64,000 bases of DNA from Bacteriovoracia bacterium (GCA_050246755.1 JBFWVL010000001.1:288001-352000), one strand, 5' to 3'; shown: positions 49,463 through 57,195, counted from the first letter of the stretch. The notes: generated by a model not told the origin, from the sequence alone. Program-made: numbers and translations.

Positions 49463-50614
49463 TTACATCTGACGAACGGGCTTCCATCCTGGACCGGAGG
49501 GCAAGCCGGGAGCGGCAGGTACCGGAGCGGAGGGAGAATTCGCAGAGGAGCCGGGACGACCACCGCCACCGCGGCGGTCGGGTTGTCCGTCGCCGTCACG
49601 GTCGCGTCCGCCACCGAAGTGGCCGCCGGGCGTGGACGCAGGGGCAGGAGCTACCACTACCGGGGCGGGAGAAGGAGCTACGTAAGGAGCGGGCGCAGCA
49701 GGAGCGGGACGGTTCCAGTTTCCGCGTCCACCGCCGATATTATTTCTGTCGTGACGGCCATCGCCATTGCGGTCGCGGCCGAAGCTAGGCACAGGAGACT
49801 GGTACGAAGGAGCGGAGGGAAAGTTTCGATCGTCGCGATTGAAACGGTTGTGATCGCGTCCGCCACTGCGGCGATCGTCTCTGCCTGGGCAGCTGGGAGT
49901 AGCATCGTAGGGAGAGCAGTCGTCGCTGTAGCTCGGAGAAGGAGTATAAGAAGGAGCGGGTTCTTCTTCCGTGTTACCGGAGGAACTGCCACTGAAAAAG
50001 TTATTGAGGAAACCGCGGAGGCCGGAGTTTTGCTGTTCATGGAGCTCGTCTAAGGCTTTCTGTAACTCAGCCTGATTTTCGATATCCGCGAGATCGAGGA
50101 TTATGACGGAATCGGAGAGTTTTTTGTCTTTGGCGGAGCTTACTTTCAGAGAAAGAGATTCCTTCTTCGCTTCCACGCCGGGAAGCCAGTCCAAACCGCT
50201 GAACATCTCATCGGTGAGGTGAAGAACAACGCCGGTTTTGGTCACTTCGAGGCCGCTGCCTTTGCAGCTGGCCGCGCGAGCGGGATCGCAATCGCGGTCG
50301 GTATTGGTCAAGCGCCATACGAAATCCTGGGGACTGGCTTTTTGCGCCACGAGCTTGCCGTTTTCCTTTACGAAGAGATCAGCGGCGAAAGAGATCTTCT
50401 TACCGGGGTAGCGCTTGATTTCTTTTTTGTGATTGGGATTGGCCACGCCGTCAATCGCGGAGATGCGAAGAATGGGAGTGGCGGGAGCGACAGACTTAGC
50501 GGCTTCCACTGGCTTGGCGGCCGCGGGTTTCGCCGGGGTAACGGGAGTAGCCGCGAAGGCGCTCACGCCCTGGAGTAAACAAACGGTATAGATGATTGGC
50601 TTGGAAAATTTCAC
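49463..50614 (-). CDS. Secreted protein with Pro/Gly/Arg/Asp-rich repetitive C-terminal half
   Basis: GTG start with SD GGAGG, signal peptide, globular region, then PAP repeats and GRDRxGDG repeats. Confidence 0.75.
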   Translation of the reverse strand: MKFSKPIIYTVCLLQGVSAFAATPVTPAKPAAAKPVEAAKSVAPATPILRISAIDGVANPNHKKEIKRYPGKKISFAADLFVKENGKLVAQKASPQDFVWRLTNTDRDCDPARAASCKGSGLEVTKTGVVLHLTDEMFSGLDWLPGVEAKKESLSLKVSSAKDKKLSDSVIILDLADIENQAELQKALDELHEQQNSGLRGFLNNFFSGSSSGNTEEEPAPSYTPSPSYSDDCSPYDATPSCPGRDDRRSGGRDHNRFNRDDRNFPSAPSYQSPVPSFGRDRNGDGRHDRNNIGGGRGNWNRPAPAAPAPYVAPSPAPVVVAPAPASTPGGHFGGGRDRDGDGQPDRRGGGGRPGSSANSPSAPVPAAPGLPSGPGWKPVRQM

Positions 50615-50734
50615 GGAGAACCTCCGCTGCTAAGCAGCTTGAACGTGGAGTCGCAGTCACTAATTGTTGAGCATATTAGTATGTTATTGAGGTGAGATCA
50701 AGAGGAAGCGCGAGCTACTTGTAACTATTTAAAA

Positions 50735-51577
50735 TCAAAAGATAATATTATCAATAAGACGCGTATTACCCAGGAAACCCGCCACGAAAAAGGCCGCAGG
50801 GCGGTCCAATTCACTGAGTTCCCGGAGATTCTCAAGATCGCGGATCTCGGCGTACTGGATTTGAAACTCGGGCACCCGGGCGAGGGTTTCCTTGGCCGCG
50901 TGCACGAGCTTGTCGGGATGCTTCTCCCCTTTTTGCTTCCAGCTCTTCACGGTTTGCAAAGCACGGAAAATCCCGATCGCCTTTTTGCGCTCTTCCGGAG
51001 AAAGATAACGGTTTCGCGAACTCATGGCTAAGCCGTCCGCTTCCCGTACCGTGGGACCAATTTCGATCGTCACAGGTAAATCAAGATCGCTCACCATCTT
51101 CTGGATCACGAGGCACTGCTGCAGGTCTTTTTGTCCGAAATAGGCAACGGTAGGCTCTACGATTTTCAGCAAGCGATAGACCACGGTGGCTACGCCGCGG
51201 AAATGCCCGGGACGAAACTTGCCGCAGAGCACGTCGGTGAGGCCCTGTACTTCGATGAAAGTGCTCCAGCCTTCGGGGTAAATCACTTCCGACGTGGGCG
51301 CAAACACGAAGCCCACGCCCGATTTTTTTGCGAGCTCGAGGTCGGATTCGAAGGTGCGGGGATACTTCGCCAAATCTTCATTCGGGCCGAACTGGGTGGG
51401 ATTCACGAAGATCGAAAGCACGGTATGGGAATTCTCCTGCACGGATTTTTTCAGCAGCGAAGCGTGTCCCTCGTGGAGCGCGCCCATGGTGGGCACGAAA
51501 CCGATTTTCTCCCCGGTGGCCCGTAAGGAAGATAGCGCGGACTTCACTTCTTCGAGGGTGCGGAGAACCTGGGTCAA
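50735..51577 (-). CDS. panC: Pantoate--beta-alanine ligase
   Basis: PTMGALHEGH, FVNPTQF, RPGHF, FGQKD, AMSSRN, RLIDN. Confidence 0.98.
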   Translation of the reverse strand: MTQVLRTLEEVKSALSSLRATGEKIGFVPTMGALHEGHASLLKKSVQENSHTVLSIFVNPTQFGPNEDLAKYPRTFESDLELAKKSGVGFVFAPTSEVIYPEGWSTFIEVQGLTDVLCGKFRPGHFRGVATVVYRLLKIVEPTVAYFGQKDLQQCLVIQKMVSDLDLPVTIEIGPTVREADGLAMSSRNRYLSPEERKKAIGIFRALQTVKSWKQKGEKHPDKLVHAAKETLARVPEFQIQYAEIRDLENLRELSELDRPAAFFVAGFLGNTRLIDNIIF

Positions 51578-52800
51578 AGGTTAACTCCCGAAACCTGGAA
51601 AGCTGTGCGTACAAGGAAATCGGCGATCTCGGATTTTTTTGCCTTGGCGATGCGGTTAGGAGTTTTTCCGCCCTGGAATAAGAAAATCTCGTTATCTTCC
51701 GCATCGAAACCGATGTCTTTGCGGGAAATATTATTGAGGGCGAGGTAATCGAGCTTCTTCTTGAGGATTTTTTCGCGCGCCTTGGCGAATTCAGGCTCGC
51801 CCTCCCCCGCTTCGGCGGCAAACCCAAAGAATACCTGGCCGGCCCGTTTCTCTTTGCCGAGCTCCGCGAGCACGTCCACGGAAGGCTGCATCTCGAGCTT
51901 GAGGTTTCCTTCCCGGCGCAGTTTTCCGTCCACCACTTCGGGCATCTCGAAATCAGCCACGGCCGCCGTGGCGAAAACCGCGTGGGCCTTAGCCATCACC
52001 TTACGGCAAGCCGCGAGCATCTCGGCGCCCGTTTCCACTTCCACCACTTTTCCGCGCGCGAGGCGGGCAAAGCGCTCTTCCACCGGGCCGGTTACCAGCA
52101 CCACGGTTGCGCCCAGCTTCTCGGCGGCTTCGGCGATCGCGTGGCCCATGCGCCCGCTGGAGCGGTTGGTAATAAAGCGCACGCGGTCGATATAGGCGCG
52201 GGTAGGGCCGCTCGTGACCAAAATCGTTTTGCCAAGCAGAGGCTGGGAGGCGCCCAGCAGCTTTTCCGCGGCCGTGAAAATTTCCTGGGGCTCACTCATC
52301 TTCCCGGTGCCCACTTCCCCGCAAGCGAGATCTCCGGCGGCAGGCCCAATAAACTTCACTCCACGTTTTTTCAGCGTGGCTAAATTTTCCTGGGTGGCGG
52401 GTGCATCCCACATTCTCGTATTCATCGCGGGCGCGAGTAGAACCGGCCCCTGGAAAGCGAGCGCTTCGGTGAGGAGGGCGTCGTCCGCAATTCCCTGGGC
52501 GTGCTTCGCCATGAAGTTCGCGGTGGCGGGTGCCACCACCAGGAGTTCGCCCCACTGCGCAAGATCGATATGGGAAGTAGCGCTGAGGTCGCTCACGCCT
52601 TGCTGGAGCGAACGCAAAACGGGCTCACCCGAAAGGGAATGAAACGTAAGCGCCGAAACGAAGCTCTCGGCCGAAGCCGTCATCACCACGCGCACTTCGT
52701 GGCCGGCTTTTTTGAATAAGCGCACGAGCTCGCAGGCTTTGTAGGCCGCGATTCCCCCCGTTACGCCAACGATGATTTTAGATTTTCCGGGCAAGGGCAT
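51574..52800 (-). CDS. coaBC: Phosphopantothenoylcysteine decarboxylase/synthetase
   Basis: GGIAAYK, APATAN, APAMN, LACG, TSGPT, NRSSGRMG, AAVADF, GFAAE. Confidence 0.97.
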   Translation of the reverse strand: MPLPGKSKIIVGVTGGIAAYKACELVRLFKKAGHEVRVVMTASAESFVSALTFHSLSGEPVLRSLQQGVSDLSATSHIDLAQWGELLVVAPATANFMAKHAQGIADDALLTEALAFQGPVLLAPAMNTRMWDAPATQENLATLKKRGVKFIGPAAGDLACGEVGTGKMSEPQEIFTAAEKLLGASQPLLGKTILVTSGPTRAYIDRVRFITNRSSGRMGHAIAEAAEKLGATVVLVTGPVEERFARLARGKVVEVETGAEMLAACRKVMAKAHAVFATAAVADFEMPEVVDGKLRREGNLKLEMQPSVDVLAELGKEKRAGQVFFGFAAEAGEGEPEFAKAREKILKKKLDYLALNNISRKDIGFDAEDNEIFLFQGGKTPNRIAKAKKSEIADFLVRTAFQVSGVNL

Positions 52801-53515
52801 AAAGGCCTTCCAAGGTTAATCGGGGCCGCTGCTGCGTGATCAGGCGCGACCTACCAGTTAAAAATTTCGCGTTGCCCCCGGTGGCAATCACCGCCGCCAG
52901 AGAAGGCAACCTACGCTCTTCCACCATCCGCATCACCATGCCGTCTGCCTGGGCGGCAAACCCGTGGAGTACCCCGCTGCGGATGGCAGTTTCTGTGTTG
53001 TAGCCTACCACGGGAGAAAACTTATCGAGCTCAATCTTGTTTAGCTGAGCGGCATTATTAAGTAAGGCCTCATAGGAAATGGCCATTCCGGGGGCAATGG
53101 CGCCGCCCGGAAAGGAACGCTTCTCAACGCCCTCCAGCAAATCGAATTTCGTGGCCGTGCCGGCATCGATCACGAGCACCGCACCGGGAATATCGGATAC
53201 GGCCTCGAGGTTGGCGAGGCGATCGATGCCCACTTTCTCGGGGCTTTCCACCTCGATGGAAAAACTCCAGGGCGAAGCGTGGGAGGCGAAGTGGACGCTG
53301 GAAGCGCGCGCGGAGAAAAAAGCCTCCCAGGCCGCATTATGCGCGGGAACCACCGAGCCGATCACGGCCTTGGAAATTTTCTCTTCAAAGATGCCGGCGG
53401 CAGCGCCGGAGAAATCGTCGGCCGTGGAGAGCGTGCGCTCCGCCTTCAGCATTCCCTCATCGCCGTAGAGGGCGAGCTTGGTGCGGGTATTGCCGATGTC
53501 CACGATGGCGATCAC
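52778..53515 (-). CDS. coaX: Type III pantothenate kinase
   Basis: DIGNT, GIDR, IDAGTAT, GGAIAPG, ATGG. Confidence 0.95.
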   Translation of the reverse strand: MIAIVDIGNTRTKLALYGDEGMLKAERTLSTADDFSGAAAGIFEEKISKAVIGSVVPAHNAAWEAFFSARASSVHFASHASPWSFSIEVESPEKVGIDRLANLEAVSDIPGAVLVIDAGTATKFDLLEGVEKRSFPGGAIAPGMAISYEALLNNAAQLNKIELDKFSPVVGYNTETAIRSGVLHGFAAQADGMVMRMVEERRLPSLAAVIATGGNAKFLTGRSRLITQQRPRLTLEGLYALARKI

Positions 53516-54327
53516 TGCGAGAGCTCCGCTCCAGGGGAAGAAACCGTTTTGGTCTCGCGCACGAAATCCTCGGCGGCTTCCTTCACCAGGGCCTTCAGAT
53601 CGAGGCGGGGCTTGGCGAACTTGGGGGCTTTACCCGGGCTGAATCCCAACACATCGTTGATCACGAGCACTTCTCCGTCGCAAACTTTACCGGAGCCGAT
53701 GCCGATCGTGAGGCAGGAAACGGATTCGGTGATCACCCGCGCGAGCTGCTCGGTGATGCACTCGAGCACGATCGCAAAACATCCGGCGGCCTCGAGGGCT
53801 TTGGCTTCGCGCACGAGGCGCTCGGCGTCGGATTCGGTTTTGCCGTGAGTATAGTAGCCGCCCATCTGGTGCACAGATTGGGGCGTGAGGCCGATATGCC
53901 CCATCACCGGAATGCCCGCGTTCACGAGGCGGCGGATGGTTTCGCAAACTTCGGGGTAAGCGCCCTCGAGCTTCACGCCCTGGGCGCCGGCTTCGGCCAG
54001 GCAGCGCCCGGCGTTGCGGAGGGCTTCGTCGCCGTTCACTTGGTAGGTCATGAAGGGCAGATCTGCGATCACGAAGGCTTTCTTCGAGCCGCGCACCACG
54101 GCGCCGGTATGGGCGAGCATCATGTCCATCGTTACGGGCAAGGTGCTCTCATAGCCGTAGACTACGTTGCCGAAGGAATCTCCCACGAGCAGGATCTCCA
54201 CGCCGGCCTCATCGAGGCACTGGGCGGTGACTACGTCGTAGGCCGTGAGCATGGCCACGCGCTCTTTATTTTTTTTCGCGCCGAGGGTGCGCAGGGTATG
54301 GCGGCGGATTTCGGTTTGTACGCTCAT
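53512..54327 (-). CDS. panB: 3-methyl-2-oxobutanoate hydroxymethyltransferase
   Basis: MLTAYD, LVGDS, VKLEG, GHIGLTPQ, IGIG. Confidence 0.98.
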   Translation of the reverse strand: MSVQTEIRRHTLRTLGAKKNKERVAMLTAYDVVTAQCLDEAGVEILLVGDSFGNVVYGYESTLPVTMDMMLAHTGAVVRGSKKAFVIADLPFMTYQVNGDEALRNAGRCLAEAGAQGVKLEGAYPEVCETIRRLVNAGIPVMGHIGLTPQSVHQMGGYYTHGKTESDAERLVREAKALEAAGCFAIVLECITEQLARVITESVSCLTIGIGSGKVCDGEVLVINDVLGFSPGKAPKFAKPRLDLKALVKEAAEDFVRETKTVSSPGAELSQ

Positions 54328-55211
54328 GGCTGCACCTCGGAGAGAGATTGCACGAGATCGCGCTTGGCGATATGCGCGCCCAGGCGCTCGGCGAAACCGC
54401 CGTTCTCGATCTCACGCCATAGCGCTTCGGTGCGCACTTCGAGCTCGGCGGTGGGAAGGATCACTTCAGCGGCCTGCTGGCCTCCGTAGTAGGCGGCGGA
54501 GGAAACTTTCTTCAGCATTCCTTCCACGCCGTGCTCCACCATCATATCGGTGATTAGCTTCAGCTCGTTCAGGCATTCGTAGGTGGCCAACTCTTTATTG
54601 ATGCCTTTGCCCACCAGGAAATCGATGGTTTGCGTCACGAGCTTGGGCACCGCTCCGCAAAGGATCACTTGTTCGCTCAGTAAATCCGTTTTCGCTTCTT
54701 CCCCGAAGGTGGAGCGAATGAGCCCGATGCGGGAGAGGCCGAGCCCGTCGGCCACGTCTTTGGCGATTTCCCAGGCCTTGCCCGAGCCGTCTTGCTCCAC
54801 TCCAAGCACGCCCATCACCCCGGAACCAGCCACATACGTTTCCCGTAATTTTTGACCAATCCCCTTGGGAGCCACGAGCACGAGATCGTCGGAAGCGCTC
54901 ACCGGCAGCTTGCCAAAAGTAACGGCGAATCCATGAGCAAAGAGAAATTGTCTTCCACTCCCCCCCTCTAAATAACGGCGAAAAAAGCTGGGAATGGCTT
55001 CATCGGGGGTTAGGAGCGCAATTGGCCCCGAAATAGAACGTAGGTCTTCAGCGGAAACTACGTTGAATCCGTCTAACTTTGCTTGAGCGATTCCCTTACC
55101 TTCCAGCCTGCCGGAAACCACTACGTTCCACCCAGAATCCCGCAGGTTAGCCGCCCAGGCTCTGCCTTGATTTCCGTATCCCACTAGAGTAATTTGACGC
55201 TTGTTGGCCAT
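54324..55211 (-). CDS. Divergent ketol-acid reductoisomerase (IlvC)-like protein; probable ketopantoate reductase
   Basis: GYGNQG, NLRDSG, PDE, FAHGF, APKG, TDLLSEQ, ECLNELKLI; first gene of the pan/coa operon. Confidence 0.82.
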   Translation of the reverse strand: MANKRQITLVGYGNQGRAWAANLRDSGWNVVVSGRLEGKGIAQAKLDGFNVVSAEDLRSISGPIALLTPDEAIPSFFRRYLEGGSGRQFLFAHGFAVTFGKLPVSASDDLVLVAPKGIGQKLRETYVAGSGVMGVLGVEQDGSGKAWEIAKDVADGLGLSRIGLIRSTFGEEAKTDLLSEQVILCGAVPKLVTQTIDFLVGKGINKELATYECLNELKLITDMMVEHGVEGMLKKVSSAAYYGGQQAAEVILPTAELEVRTEALWREIENGGFAERLGAHIAKRDLVQSLSEVQP

Positions 55212-55253
55212 AAATAGAGCTCCGCGTAAGGACTGCTTGTACCAGGGAAAGTT

Positions 55254-55661
55254 ATGCTCCTCAACTTACTCAAAGCCAAGATCCATCGTGCCCAAATAAC
55301 CGAGGCTAACCTCGCTTATGAGGGTAGCATCACCATCGATAAAACGATCATGGAAGCGGCCGGCATTTATGCCCATGAGCAGGTGCATATCGTGGACGTG
55401 GACAACGGATCCCGCTTCGTGACTTACGTGATCGAAGGCACCCCTGGCTCGGGCGTAATGTGCGTAAACGGTGCCGCGGCCCGTTTGGTGAGCCCTGGCG
55501 ACAAAATCATCATCATTTCCTACGCCCAATTCACCAAAGAAGAGGCCCGCGAGCATCGCCCCCGGGTAGTTCTCATGGGCGAGAAAAACTCGGTAAAAGA
55601 CGCCTACGACCTCCGCCCCGGCGTTCCCATCGATCCAGGACAGCCCCTGTCCCGTGTCTAA
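55254..55661 (+). CDS. panD: Aspartate 1-decarboxylase
   Basis: KIHRA, YEGSITID, NGSRFVTY, NGAAAR. Confidence 0.97.
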   Translation: MLLNLLKAKIHRAQITEANLAYEGSITIDKTIMEAAGIYAHEQVHIVDVDNGSRFVTYVIEGTPGSGVMCVNGAAARLVSPGDKIIIISYAQFTKEEAREHRPRVVLMGEKNSVKDAYDLRPGVPIDPGQPLSRV

Positions 55662-57195
55662 ACCAATCCTTCCCTGGAATACGCTCCAGCTCGACGGGGA
55701 GCTTTCCCTCTTGGAGCAGGACCGCATATCCCATTCCGAAGACGCCTCCGTGCACCGCCTCGTGCCTGCCGCGGTAGCCTACCCCCGTACGAAACGAGAT
55801 CTCGAGCGTATCCTCGCCTTCTGCCGCCTCCATTCTCTCCCCCTCCACGGCTGGGGTGCCGGAACCAGCCGTGGAGGCCAGCCCCTGGGAAACGGCCTCA
55901 CGGTGGATTTCCGCAAATATTTCCACCATATCCTCGGCTTCGACGAAGCCTCGCAGGAGCTCACGGTGGAAAGCGGCGCCCTCTATTCCGAAGTGCAAAA
56001 ATACCTGCGCGCCCGCGGCCGGTCTTTCCCGCCCGATCCCTCCTACCACCAGTGCACGATCGGCGGCATGGTGGCCAATAATGCCGCCGGCATTCACTCC
56101 GTAAAATACGGCGGCACCGCCTCCTATATCGCGGCGATGGAATTTCTCACCAGCGACGGCGCCTGGCACCAAAGCGACCAGCCCGATGCGCTCACGGAAA
56201 AAGTGCAGGTTTTTCTCAAGAAAAATTCTTTTTCGGATTATCCGGCCGTGGAAAAAAATTCCGCGGGCTATGCCCTGAACCGCGGCCTCTCGGCGCAAGG
56301 CTACCTTGATCTAGCCCAGCTTCTCACCGGCAGCGAGGGGACGCTTGGCCTCTTTACGGAAATCCGCCTGCGCACGGTACCGCTCCCGACCGCCTCCTCC
56401 TTGGGCATCCTCTATTTTGAAAGCCTGGAATCCGCGTGCCGGGCCGCTATGGATCTACGAAGTTATGAAATTTCGGCCTGTGAGCTCGTGGATAAAGTGC
56501 TTTTGGACCTGCACGCGGCCGCCACTTCGGAACCAAAGCACGCGAAGAAAATTTCCGGAAATACCTTCCTCGATCTGTTCTACGAGAAAAAAGCGGAAGC
56601 GATTCTGGTGGTGGAAATAGAGGGAGGCTCTACTTCCGCAGCGGAAAAAACACTGCGTCAAGCGCTGGGTTCCGTGACTTCCCTCGATTCCCGCATCGCC
56701 CAGTCCCCCAAAGAATCCGCCCTGATCTGGGACCTGCGCCGCCATACCTCCCCCATTTTGAACCGCCTCGAAAATGGAAAGATCACCATCAAGCCTCTTT
56801 GGGCGGTAGAAGACGTTTCCTTGCCCAAGGAAAACTTCCTCCCTTACCTCACCGCGCAAAAGGCCCTCTTCACCAAACATGGCCTAACCTGCTCCTTCTT
56901 CGGCCACGCCGCGAGCTGCAATCTGCATATCGATCCCATTGGGATCGATCCGCGTTTGGCACTCCAAAACGAAGAACTGGCGGCGCTATTTGATTTGGTG
57001 GCAGAGGAAAGCTACGAGCTCGTGGTGCGCTTCGGGGGCAGCATCAGCGGTGAGCACGGCGATGGTATTGCCCGCACCCCTTTCCTCAAACTCCAGTATC
57101 CAAGCAGCCACCGCTTATTCGGCCCCTTCAAGGCGCTCTTCGATCCATCTGGTATACTGAATCCAGGCAAGATCGTGGAGGTTCCGCATGCATGA
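55654..57195 (+). CDS. FAD-linked oxidase (GlcD/D-lactate dehydrogenase family), no Fe-S domain
   Basis: GAGTS, CTIGGM, GSEGTLG, ED, GHA, SGEHGDG, LNPGK. Confidence 0.88.
   Translation: MSKPILPWNTLQLDGELSLLEQDRISHSEDASVHRLVPAAVAYPRTKRDLERILAFCRLHSLPLHGWGAGTSRGGQPLGNGLTVDFRKYFHHILGFDEASQELTVESGALYSEVQKYLRARGRSFPPDPSYHQCTIGGMVANNAAGIHSVKYGGTASYIAAMEFLTSDGAWHQSDQPDALTEKVQVFLKKNSFSDYPAVEKNSAGYALNRGLSAQGYLDLAQLLTGSEGTLGLFTEIRLRTVPLPTASSLGILYFESLESACRAAMDLRSYEISACELVDKVLLDLHAAATSEPKHAKKISGNTFLDLFYEKKAEAILVVEIEGGSTSAAEKTLRQALGSVTSLDSRIAQSPKESALIWDLRRHTSPILNRLENGKITIKPLWAVEDVSLPKENFLPYLTAQKALFTKHGLTCSFFGHAASCNLHIDPIGIDPRLALQNEELAALFDLVAEESYELVVRFGGSISGEHGDGIARTPFLKLQYPSSHRLFGPFKALFDPSGILNPGKIVEVPHA

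Follow-up and report, generated by a model that had tools for sequence, protein, structure and literature searches.

A ketol-acid reductoisomerase homolog heading a pantothenate operon is the probable ketopantoate reductase of a Bacteriovoracia bacterium

The stretch of DNA analysed here comprises 64,000 nucleotides of a Bacteriovoracia bacterium (GCA_050246755.1 JBFWVL010000001.1:288001-352000; the whole stretch is referred to as the window), and carries at positions 54324-55211, on the minus strand, an ATG-initiated gene for a 295-residue homolog of class I ketol-acid reductoisomerase (KARI, IlvC). This KARI-like gene, the first of a pantothenate operon, very probably encodes a dedicated ketopantoate reductase (EC 1.1.1.169) derived from IlvC, for which we infer both substrate and cofactor. 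The assignment is based on the fold, the catalytic residues, the operon position, the failure to find an ilv pathway or any other known ketopantoate reductase in the genome, and the complementary distribution of KARI and the reductase PanG. The genes of the locus, with their Pfam scores, are as follows:

54324..55211, minus strand: KARI-derived reductase, proposed ketopantoate reductase, first gene of the operon (KARI_N 137.9 bits, KARI_C 88.1 bits)
53512..54327, minus strand: panB, ketopantoate hydroxymethyltransferase, its start overlapping the stop of the KARI-like gene by 4 bp (Pantoate_transf 341.5 bits)
52778..53515, minus strand: coaX, type III pantothenate kinase (Pan_kinase 151.9 bits)
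51574..52800, minus strand: coaBC, phosphopantothenoylcysteine synthetase/decarboxylase (DFP 183 bits, Flavoprotein 109.9 bits)
50735..51577, minus strand: panC, pantoate-beta-alanine ligase, last gene of the operon (Pantoate_ligase 348.8 bits)
55212..55253, no strand: 42-bp intergenic spacer from which the KARI-like gene and panD diverge (sequence reading)
55254..55661, plus strand: panD, aspartate 1-decarboxylase, divergent (Asp_decarbox 171.6 bits)

Successive genes from the KARI-like gene to panC overlap by 4, 4, 23 and 4 bp, and the first of these overlaps, with the translational coupling to panB that it brings, speaks for the proposed function. An earlier reading of the window, made from the sequence alone (the sequence-only reading), had described this gene order, the overlap with panB and the divergent panD, and both the coordinates and the Pfam assignments agree with it, all pan and coa neighbours scoring far above their cut-offs. 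Its description of the operon as complete for pantothenate and coenzyme A (CoA) was overstated, since coaD and coaE are encoded elsewhere, on contig C1.

At the protein level, KARI_N is matched over its full profile (residues 4-163) and KARI_C over profile positions 1-110 of 144 only (residues 169-279). The score for the ilvC equivalog of NCBIfam, TIGR00465, lies just above its cut-off (234.8 versus 226.15), and those for the class I model NF004017 (260.4 versus 336) and for NF009940 (183.9 versus 406) lie below; no PanE/ApbA family was matched in the Pfam or NCBIfam scans and no DUF2520 (PF10728) in the Pfam scan. An AlphaFold2 model built from a 40-sequence alignment is confident (predicted local distance difference test score, pLDDT, 95.9; predicted template modelling score, pTM, 0.89) and, in Foldseek, superposes along its full length on class I KARIs with template modelling (TM) scores of 0.88-0.91 over 291-297 columns.

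The genome to which the window belongs (3.55 Mb in 10 contigs, 95.7% complete) holds no second KARI, its other KARI_N match being adenosylhomocysteinase (632.6 versus a cut-off of 497.6). PanE was not found in it (top score 21.8 bits versus a cut-off of 141; the ApbA matches are short Rossmann cross-matches), nor was PanG, the DUF2520-type reductase. The branched-chain pathway fares no better: IlvD gave no candidate in a search that was positive in 14/14 control genomes, the sole protein resembling acetolactate synthase is MenD (390.7 versus 244.2), and LeuB is not found, the sole Iso_dh member being NADP-isocitrate dehydrogenase. Thus the statement that panE, ilvB and ilvD are missing from the window extends to the genome as a whole, and the wider check that had been proposed, for a second ilvC, panE, panG and ilvBD, turned up none of them. 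With no ilv partner enzymes found, an acetolactate isomeroreductase would have no pathway to work in. A branched-chain aminotransferase, IlvE_II, is encoded (383.8 versus a cut-off of 250), and every step that leads from valine and aspartate to CoA is accounted for save that of ketopantoate reductase.

In the proposed pathway, valine from prey or medium would be transaminated by IlvE to 2-ketoisovalerate, which PanB would hydroxymethylate to ketopantoate. The KARI-like enzyme would then reduce the 2-keto group of ketopantoate with NAD(P)H at its conserved two-Mg2+ site to give D-pantoate, a reaction chemically the same as the second half-reaction that KARI catalyses, except that the substrate exceeds the KARI intermediate by one CH2. 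PanC would couple pantoate to beta-alanine supplied by PanD, and CoaX, CoaBC, CoaD and CoaE would finish CoA synthesis.

The linkage to pantothenate genes is conserved. Among 41 genomes of the same class (the window's own included), a homolog of the KARI-like protein was found in 17, ten of them at 54-100% identity (genus, family and order) and seven at about 30-38% (other families), and in 17/17 it is the immediate neighbour of panB, in most cases followed by coaX and with panD diverging, so that the conserved linkage required by the sequence-only reading is present. In a control set of six KARI loci from other phyla, retrieved with the same query, a pan gene lay within 4 kb in 0/6. One relative (G026, L027:1078-3198, plus strand) has a single 706-residue open frame comprising KARI_N, KARI_C and Pantoate_transf (residues 442-687), an apparent KARI-PanB fusion; in its sister genome G028 the KARI-like gene and panB are two separate genes. 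Over the 41 relatives panB was found in 31, PanE above its cut-off in 4 and IlvD in none.

The 14 panB-positive relatives without a homolog carry, in the slot upstream of panB, a DUF2520 gene (8 genomes), an HD-domain gene (5) or neither (1, G014). The eight DUF2520 proteins (235-291 residues; 52-65 bits versus a cut-off of 25) are encoded immediately ahead of panB in the same orientation, and one of them occurs in G006, a member of the window's own family. DUF2520 proteins are homologs of the Francisella ketopantoate reductase PanG/FTT1388 (PMC4572677; PMC4684696), and are called PanG-type here because that homology is stated in PMC4572677; NCBIfam gave no name to three of those from the panB-upstream slot. 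The presence of PanG in the same slot in sister lineages, together with the mutual exclusion of KARI and PanG across the phylum described next, is further support for a non-orthologous replacement.

The wider sample consisted of 151 Bdellovibrionota genomes, evenly drawn and including the window's own, with thresholds of E <= 1e-10 for KARI_N and E <= 1e-20 for PanE; two partial KARI_N matches of 44 bits were set aside (81 becoming 79). At these thresholds panB was found in 132/151 genomes, KARI in 79/151, PanG in 43/151 (within 1.5 kb of panB in 42/43), PanE in 10/151 and IlvD in 2/151. KARI and PanG were found together in 0/151, and KARI and IlvD together in one (G093, 75% complete and in 300 contigs). 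KARI lies within 1.5 kb of panB in 32 of the 79 cases, namely 6 in the window's own class, 6 in family f13 and 20/20 in family f20. The remaining 47/79 KARI genes are not near panB: inspection of 11 such loci in 10 genomes showed no pan gene within about 3.5 kb, and the neighbours at eight scanned loci were UvrB, rhodanese, YceD, TrkH and serA/serC-like genes, with no ilv or leu gene among them. These canonical-type KARIs may also act as ketopantoate reductases, and if they do, retention of IlvC for vitamin B5 would be a trait of the whole phylum.

In sequence space, about 113 clusters (at 90% identity) share at least 47% identity with the KARI-like protein, mostly with lengths of 283-321 residues and with a few shorter fragments; next in identity come canonical KARIs of about 330 residues, at 41-46%. 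The named relatives are metagenome-assembled genomes of Bdellovibrionales/Bdellovibrionota, and wherever sources name these proteins the current label is ketol-acid reductoisomerase. A tree of 99 rows groups the window protein with its close orthologs and with metagenomic proteins in one clade (support 95) and puts the distant pan-linked proteins in a separate one (100). In a second tree of 90 rows, computed with a mixture model and extended by the pan-linked proteins of f20 and f13 and the orphan KARIs of f16, f17, f21 and f26, one branch (Shimodaira-Hasegawa-like approximate likelihood ratio test, SH-aLRT, 99.7) parts 29/29 pan-linked rows from 17/17 known non-pan-linked rows, so that the KARI phylogeny with neighbourhoods, which had been suggested as a check, separates the two. 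The orphan Bdellovibrionota KARIs fall within the core canonical clade (99), and the KARI-like protein falls outside it. Both trees are quick, unrooted searches without bootstraps, and are compatible with either a single origin or several origins of the pan-linked groups.

The translation contains the motifs GYGNQG, APKGIGQ, EEAKTDLLSEQ, YECLNE and VSSAAYYG. All motifs quoted by the sequence-only reading are present, and they depart from the solved Staphylococcus aureus KARI in the way it described, the counterparts there being APKGPGH (for APKGIGQ), EETETDLFGEQ (for EEAKTDLLSEQ) and SNTAEFG (for SSAAYYG). Nevertheless, the positions with next to no variation among 51 core KARIs (H93, K116, E172, D176, E180, E212, E216, S237, A240 and G243) are retained in 26/26 rows of the protein's own clade (clade A) and in 6-7/7 rows of the distant clade, and the catalytic set in 10-11/11 further pan-linked rows. 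D176, E180, E212 and E216 correspond to D191, E195, E227 and E231, the ligands of the two Mg2+ ions in Sac-KARI (PMC5940873). Of the positions considered for cofactor preference, R35 is likewise retained in 26/26 clade A rows, with positions 38 and 40 mostly Gly, Ser being commonest there in core KARIs. Judged by its catalytic residues and fold, the enzyme appears fully equipped to carry out metal-dependent 2-keto reduction.

Several points weigh against the proposed function and should be considered together. The genomes are mutually related and mostly metagenome-assembled, so that the counts describe a pattern rather than independent trials and each absence means 'not found'. KARI and PanE coexist in 5/79 KARI genomes, and are therefore not strictly exclusive. 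Eight of the 132 panB-positive genomes have none of the three reductases at the thresholds used, which shows that some reductases escape detection or that further kinds exist beyond those known; one of the eight is the fusion genome, in which the KARI_N match is weak. The fusion itself is a single case that could reflect an assembly or sequencing error at a stop codon. Finally, the residues of the active site do not tell it apart from that of a functional isomeroreductase, and are compatible with residual KARI activity or with another 2-keto-acid substrate.

The last point leads to the alternative that survives best, improbable as it appears: the enzyme could be a reductase for a different 2-keto or hydroxy acid, such as one converting 2-ketoisovalerate to 2-hydroxyisovalerate or acting on an uncharacterised metabolite, with ketopantoate being reduced by an enzyme not yet recognised. 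KARIs are promiscuous (PMC4353338; PMC5940873), the eight panB-positive genomes without a known reductase indicate that unrecognised ketopantoate reductases may exist, and the 47 phylum KARI genes away from panB could be read in the same way. Such a substrate would leave unexplained the constant operon position (17/17 relatives and 32 cases in the phylum sample), the overlap with panB, the PanB fusion in one relative and the zero co-occurrence with PanG, the occupant of the same slot. Far less probable still is an ordinary bifunctional IlvC of valine, leucine and isoleucine biosynthesis whose adjacency to panB merely reflects the supply of ketoisovalerate. Although the TIGR00465 score, the intact catalytic residues and the label used by all sources that name these proteins would suit it, IlvD was found neither in the genome nor in any of the 41 relatives and in only two phylum genomes, the sole acetolactate synthase-like protein is MenD, LeuB was not found, the NF004017 score (260 versus 336) and the position outside the core KARI clade are against it, and a metabolic model of B. 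bacteriovorus predicts auxotrophy for Val, Leu and Ile (PMC7529429). Because the pathway is missing, a canonical ilv role is nearly excluded. The same model also lists pantothenate as an auxotrophy (PMC7529429). Equally remote is a decaying, functionless relic of a lost ilv pathway, to which the shortened termini, the KARI_C match ending at position 110/144 and a TAG inside the copy of one relative (G021) might point, and which is made unlikely by conservation: the reading frame is uninterrupted, the catalytic residues show no variation in 26/26 clade members and are retained at about 30% identity in other lineages, the model is confident, about 113 cluster representatives mostly keep a length of 283-321 residues, and the gene is coupled to panB.

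A separate question is whether a dedicated ketopantoate reductase of this kind has lost the isomerase half of KARI chemistry. The sequence-only reading had proposed a dedicated reductase replacing PanE that was possibly isomerase-dead; the first part has stood up to every genomic test, while the second finds no support in the residues, H93, K116, E172, D176, E180, E212, E216 and S237 all being kept throughout clade A. There are, however, changes common to the pan-linked proteins around this set. Position 118 is Pro in 32/51 core KARIs, Ile in 23/26 clade A rows, Ile (10) or Val (1) in the 11 further pan-linked rows and Ile in 0/11 orphan KARIs. Position 179 is Gly in 31 and Ser in 12 of the 51 core proteins, Ser in 25/26 clade A rows, Ser or Thr in 11/11 further pan-linked rows and Ser in 2/11 orphans. 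Position 239 is Thr in 41/51 core KARIs and 10/11 orphans, in clade A Thr in 8 and Ala in 15 of 26, and Thr in 1/11 further pan-linked rows. F178 and Y210 are frequently replaced too in pan-linked proteins, and the termini are shortened (median 7 residues before G11, versus 23 in core KARIs, and 28 after F273, versus 42).

A bolder reading, held here only tentatively and considered somewhat less probable than its opposite, is that the pan-linked KARI-like proteins of the window's class, f20 and f13 may form a specialised reductase-only lineage stripped of the isomerase half-reaction. In that case (i) the shared changes near the catalytic Lys and the motifs for metal and substrate, namely the exchange of P118 for Ile and of G179 for Ser or Thr, the loss of T239 and the trimmed termini, would have adapted the pocket to ketopantoate and put an end to alkyl migration, and (ii) the unrelated KARI-type, PanG and PanE reductases would have been swapped in place repeatedly within one phylum of amino-acid-auxotrophic predators. 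As acetolactate synthase was not found, the isomerase question has no physiological bearing here, though it is enzymologically interesting.

That a bifunctional IlvC can reduce ketopantoate, either on the side or as the only enzyme with this activity, is already established, with examples in C. glutamicum and T. maritima (PMC7883664), Salmonella (PMC4353338), Buchnera (PMC4306246) and B. subtilis (PMC11487621). The C. glutamicum enzyme (6jx2) shares with the window protein its fold and domains (TM 0.89-0.90 to the model) and its Mg2+ and catalytic residues. The known IlvC ketopantoate reductases are nonetheless bifunctional, belong to an intact ilv pathway and are encoded outside pan operons, whereas the KARI-like gene heads a pan operon in a genome where no ilv pathway was found, lies outside the core clade and is fused to panB in one relative; its product is also about 30 residues shorter, with I118, S179 and a residue other than Thr at 239.

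PanE/ApbA (TIGR00745, PF02558/PF08546) catalyses the same proposed reaction, but the KARI-like protein does not match its sequence family. PanE is metal-independent; the KARI-like protein, unlike PanE, keeps the two-Mg2+ site. Both are nevertheless Rossmann reductases of the 6-phosphogluconate-dehydrogenase-like superfamily (PMC4353338). The PanG of the Francisella FTT1388 type (DUF2520) occupies the same panB-upstream position in sister Bdellovibrionota, but has a C-terminal domain of an unrelated family. The B. subtilis protein also named 'PanG' (YkpB) was considered as an analogue and rejected, as it belongs to the ketopantoate reductase family beside PanE (YlbQ) and not to DUF2520 (PMC11487621).

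No description of a pan-operon IlvC-derived reductase was found in the literature outside subscription journals and supplementary files, where 'ketol-acid reductoisomerase' and 'Bdellovibrio' occurred together in one unrelated paper only, and a comparative-genomics paper on the phylum is silent on pantothenate, coenzyme A, branched-chain, ilvC and valine. What sets this case apart is (i) the retention of KARI across a phylum in which the ilv pathway is almost never found and (ii) a diverged, shortened KARI branch embedded in the pan operon, once fused to panB and swapped in place with PanG. For annotation, the label of reductoisomerase may lead metabolic reconstructions to credit these predators with a partial branched-chain pathway and to leave a gap in pantothenate synthesis. 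In evolutionary terms, the proposed function would provide an example of a side activity becoming the sole retained function once the parent pathway is lost, accompanied by a move into an operon, a fusion and displacement by PanG at the same site. A compact KARI scaffold of 295 residues that may prefer a non-isomerising substrate could also help to dissect the requirements of the isomerase step.

Several variants of the panB-upstream slot deserve mention in their own right. The HD-domain protein found there (438-472 residues), which is no reductase, is conserved among five genomes (L032/G015, L035/G019, L037/G024, L039/G032 and L040/G034), its assignment being based on a Pfam scan of one protein and on N-terminal similarity for the other four. 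PanE is found elsewhere, above the cut-off, in three of the five; G019 has a full-length PanE match at 88 bits, below the cut-off, and in G024 no ketopantoate reductase of the three known types was detected at the thresholds used. The G021 copy (L028/L029; C16:6496-7395) is a panB-linked KARI-like gene with a TAG inside the match and an open reading frame (ORF) of 212 residues only, in a genome where neither PanE nor PanG was found; it may be a pseudogene, suggesting that the pantothenate pathway is in the course of being lost, or an assembly error.

Among the other KARI-type proteins of the phylum, the pan-linked ones of f13 (L057:3265-4386, plus strand; L058:4244-5353, minus strand) are 369-373 residues long and carry an N-terminal extension of about 80 residues ahead of the Rossmann glycine motif. 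In G120 (C108:12198-12674), which also has PanE, the KARI_N match lies inside an open frame of 651 residues, about twice the normal length, that may have arisen by a further fusion or by run-through. G053 (L063:3100-4095, minus strand) and G061 carry a second, very divergent KARI paralog with Arg at the catalytic Lys position and Met at E212, next to (in G053) a 2-hydroxyacid dehydrogenase, a short-chain dehydrogenase/reductase (SDR), a cytidylyltransferase and an acyl-CoA dehydrogenase; this paralog probably has a different function.

As for the surroundings of the operon in the window, the base composition near the locus resembles that of the remainder. A consensus promoter and terminator scan over 50300-55800 gave no site in the 42-bp spacer 55212-55253, and its hits in the region were uninformative (1 promoter-like site with 2.0 expected, 8 terminator-like sites with 7.2 expected). 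The spacer holds a GGAG-type motif 8-11 nt ahead of the KARI-like ATG and GGGAAAG ahead of the panD ATG. On the panC side, 120 bp beyond that gene and on the same strand, there is an ORF of 383 residues (49463-50614, minus strand) with no Pfam family at E <= 0.001. On the other side, a FAD-linked oxidase of 513 residues (55654-57195, plus strand; FAD_binding_4 and FAD-oxidase_C) is encoded by a gene that shares 8 bp with the end of panD; it is also found downstream of panD in G004 and G007, and may be co-transcribed with panD.

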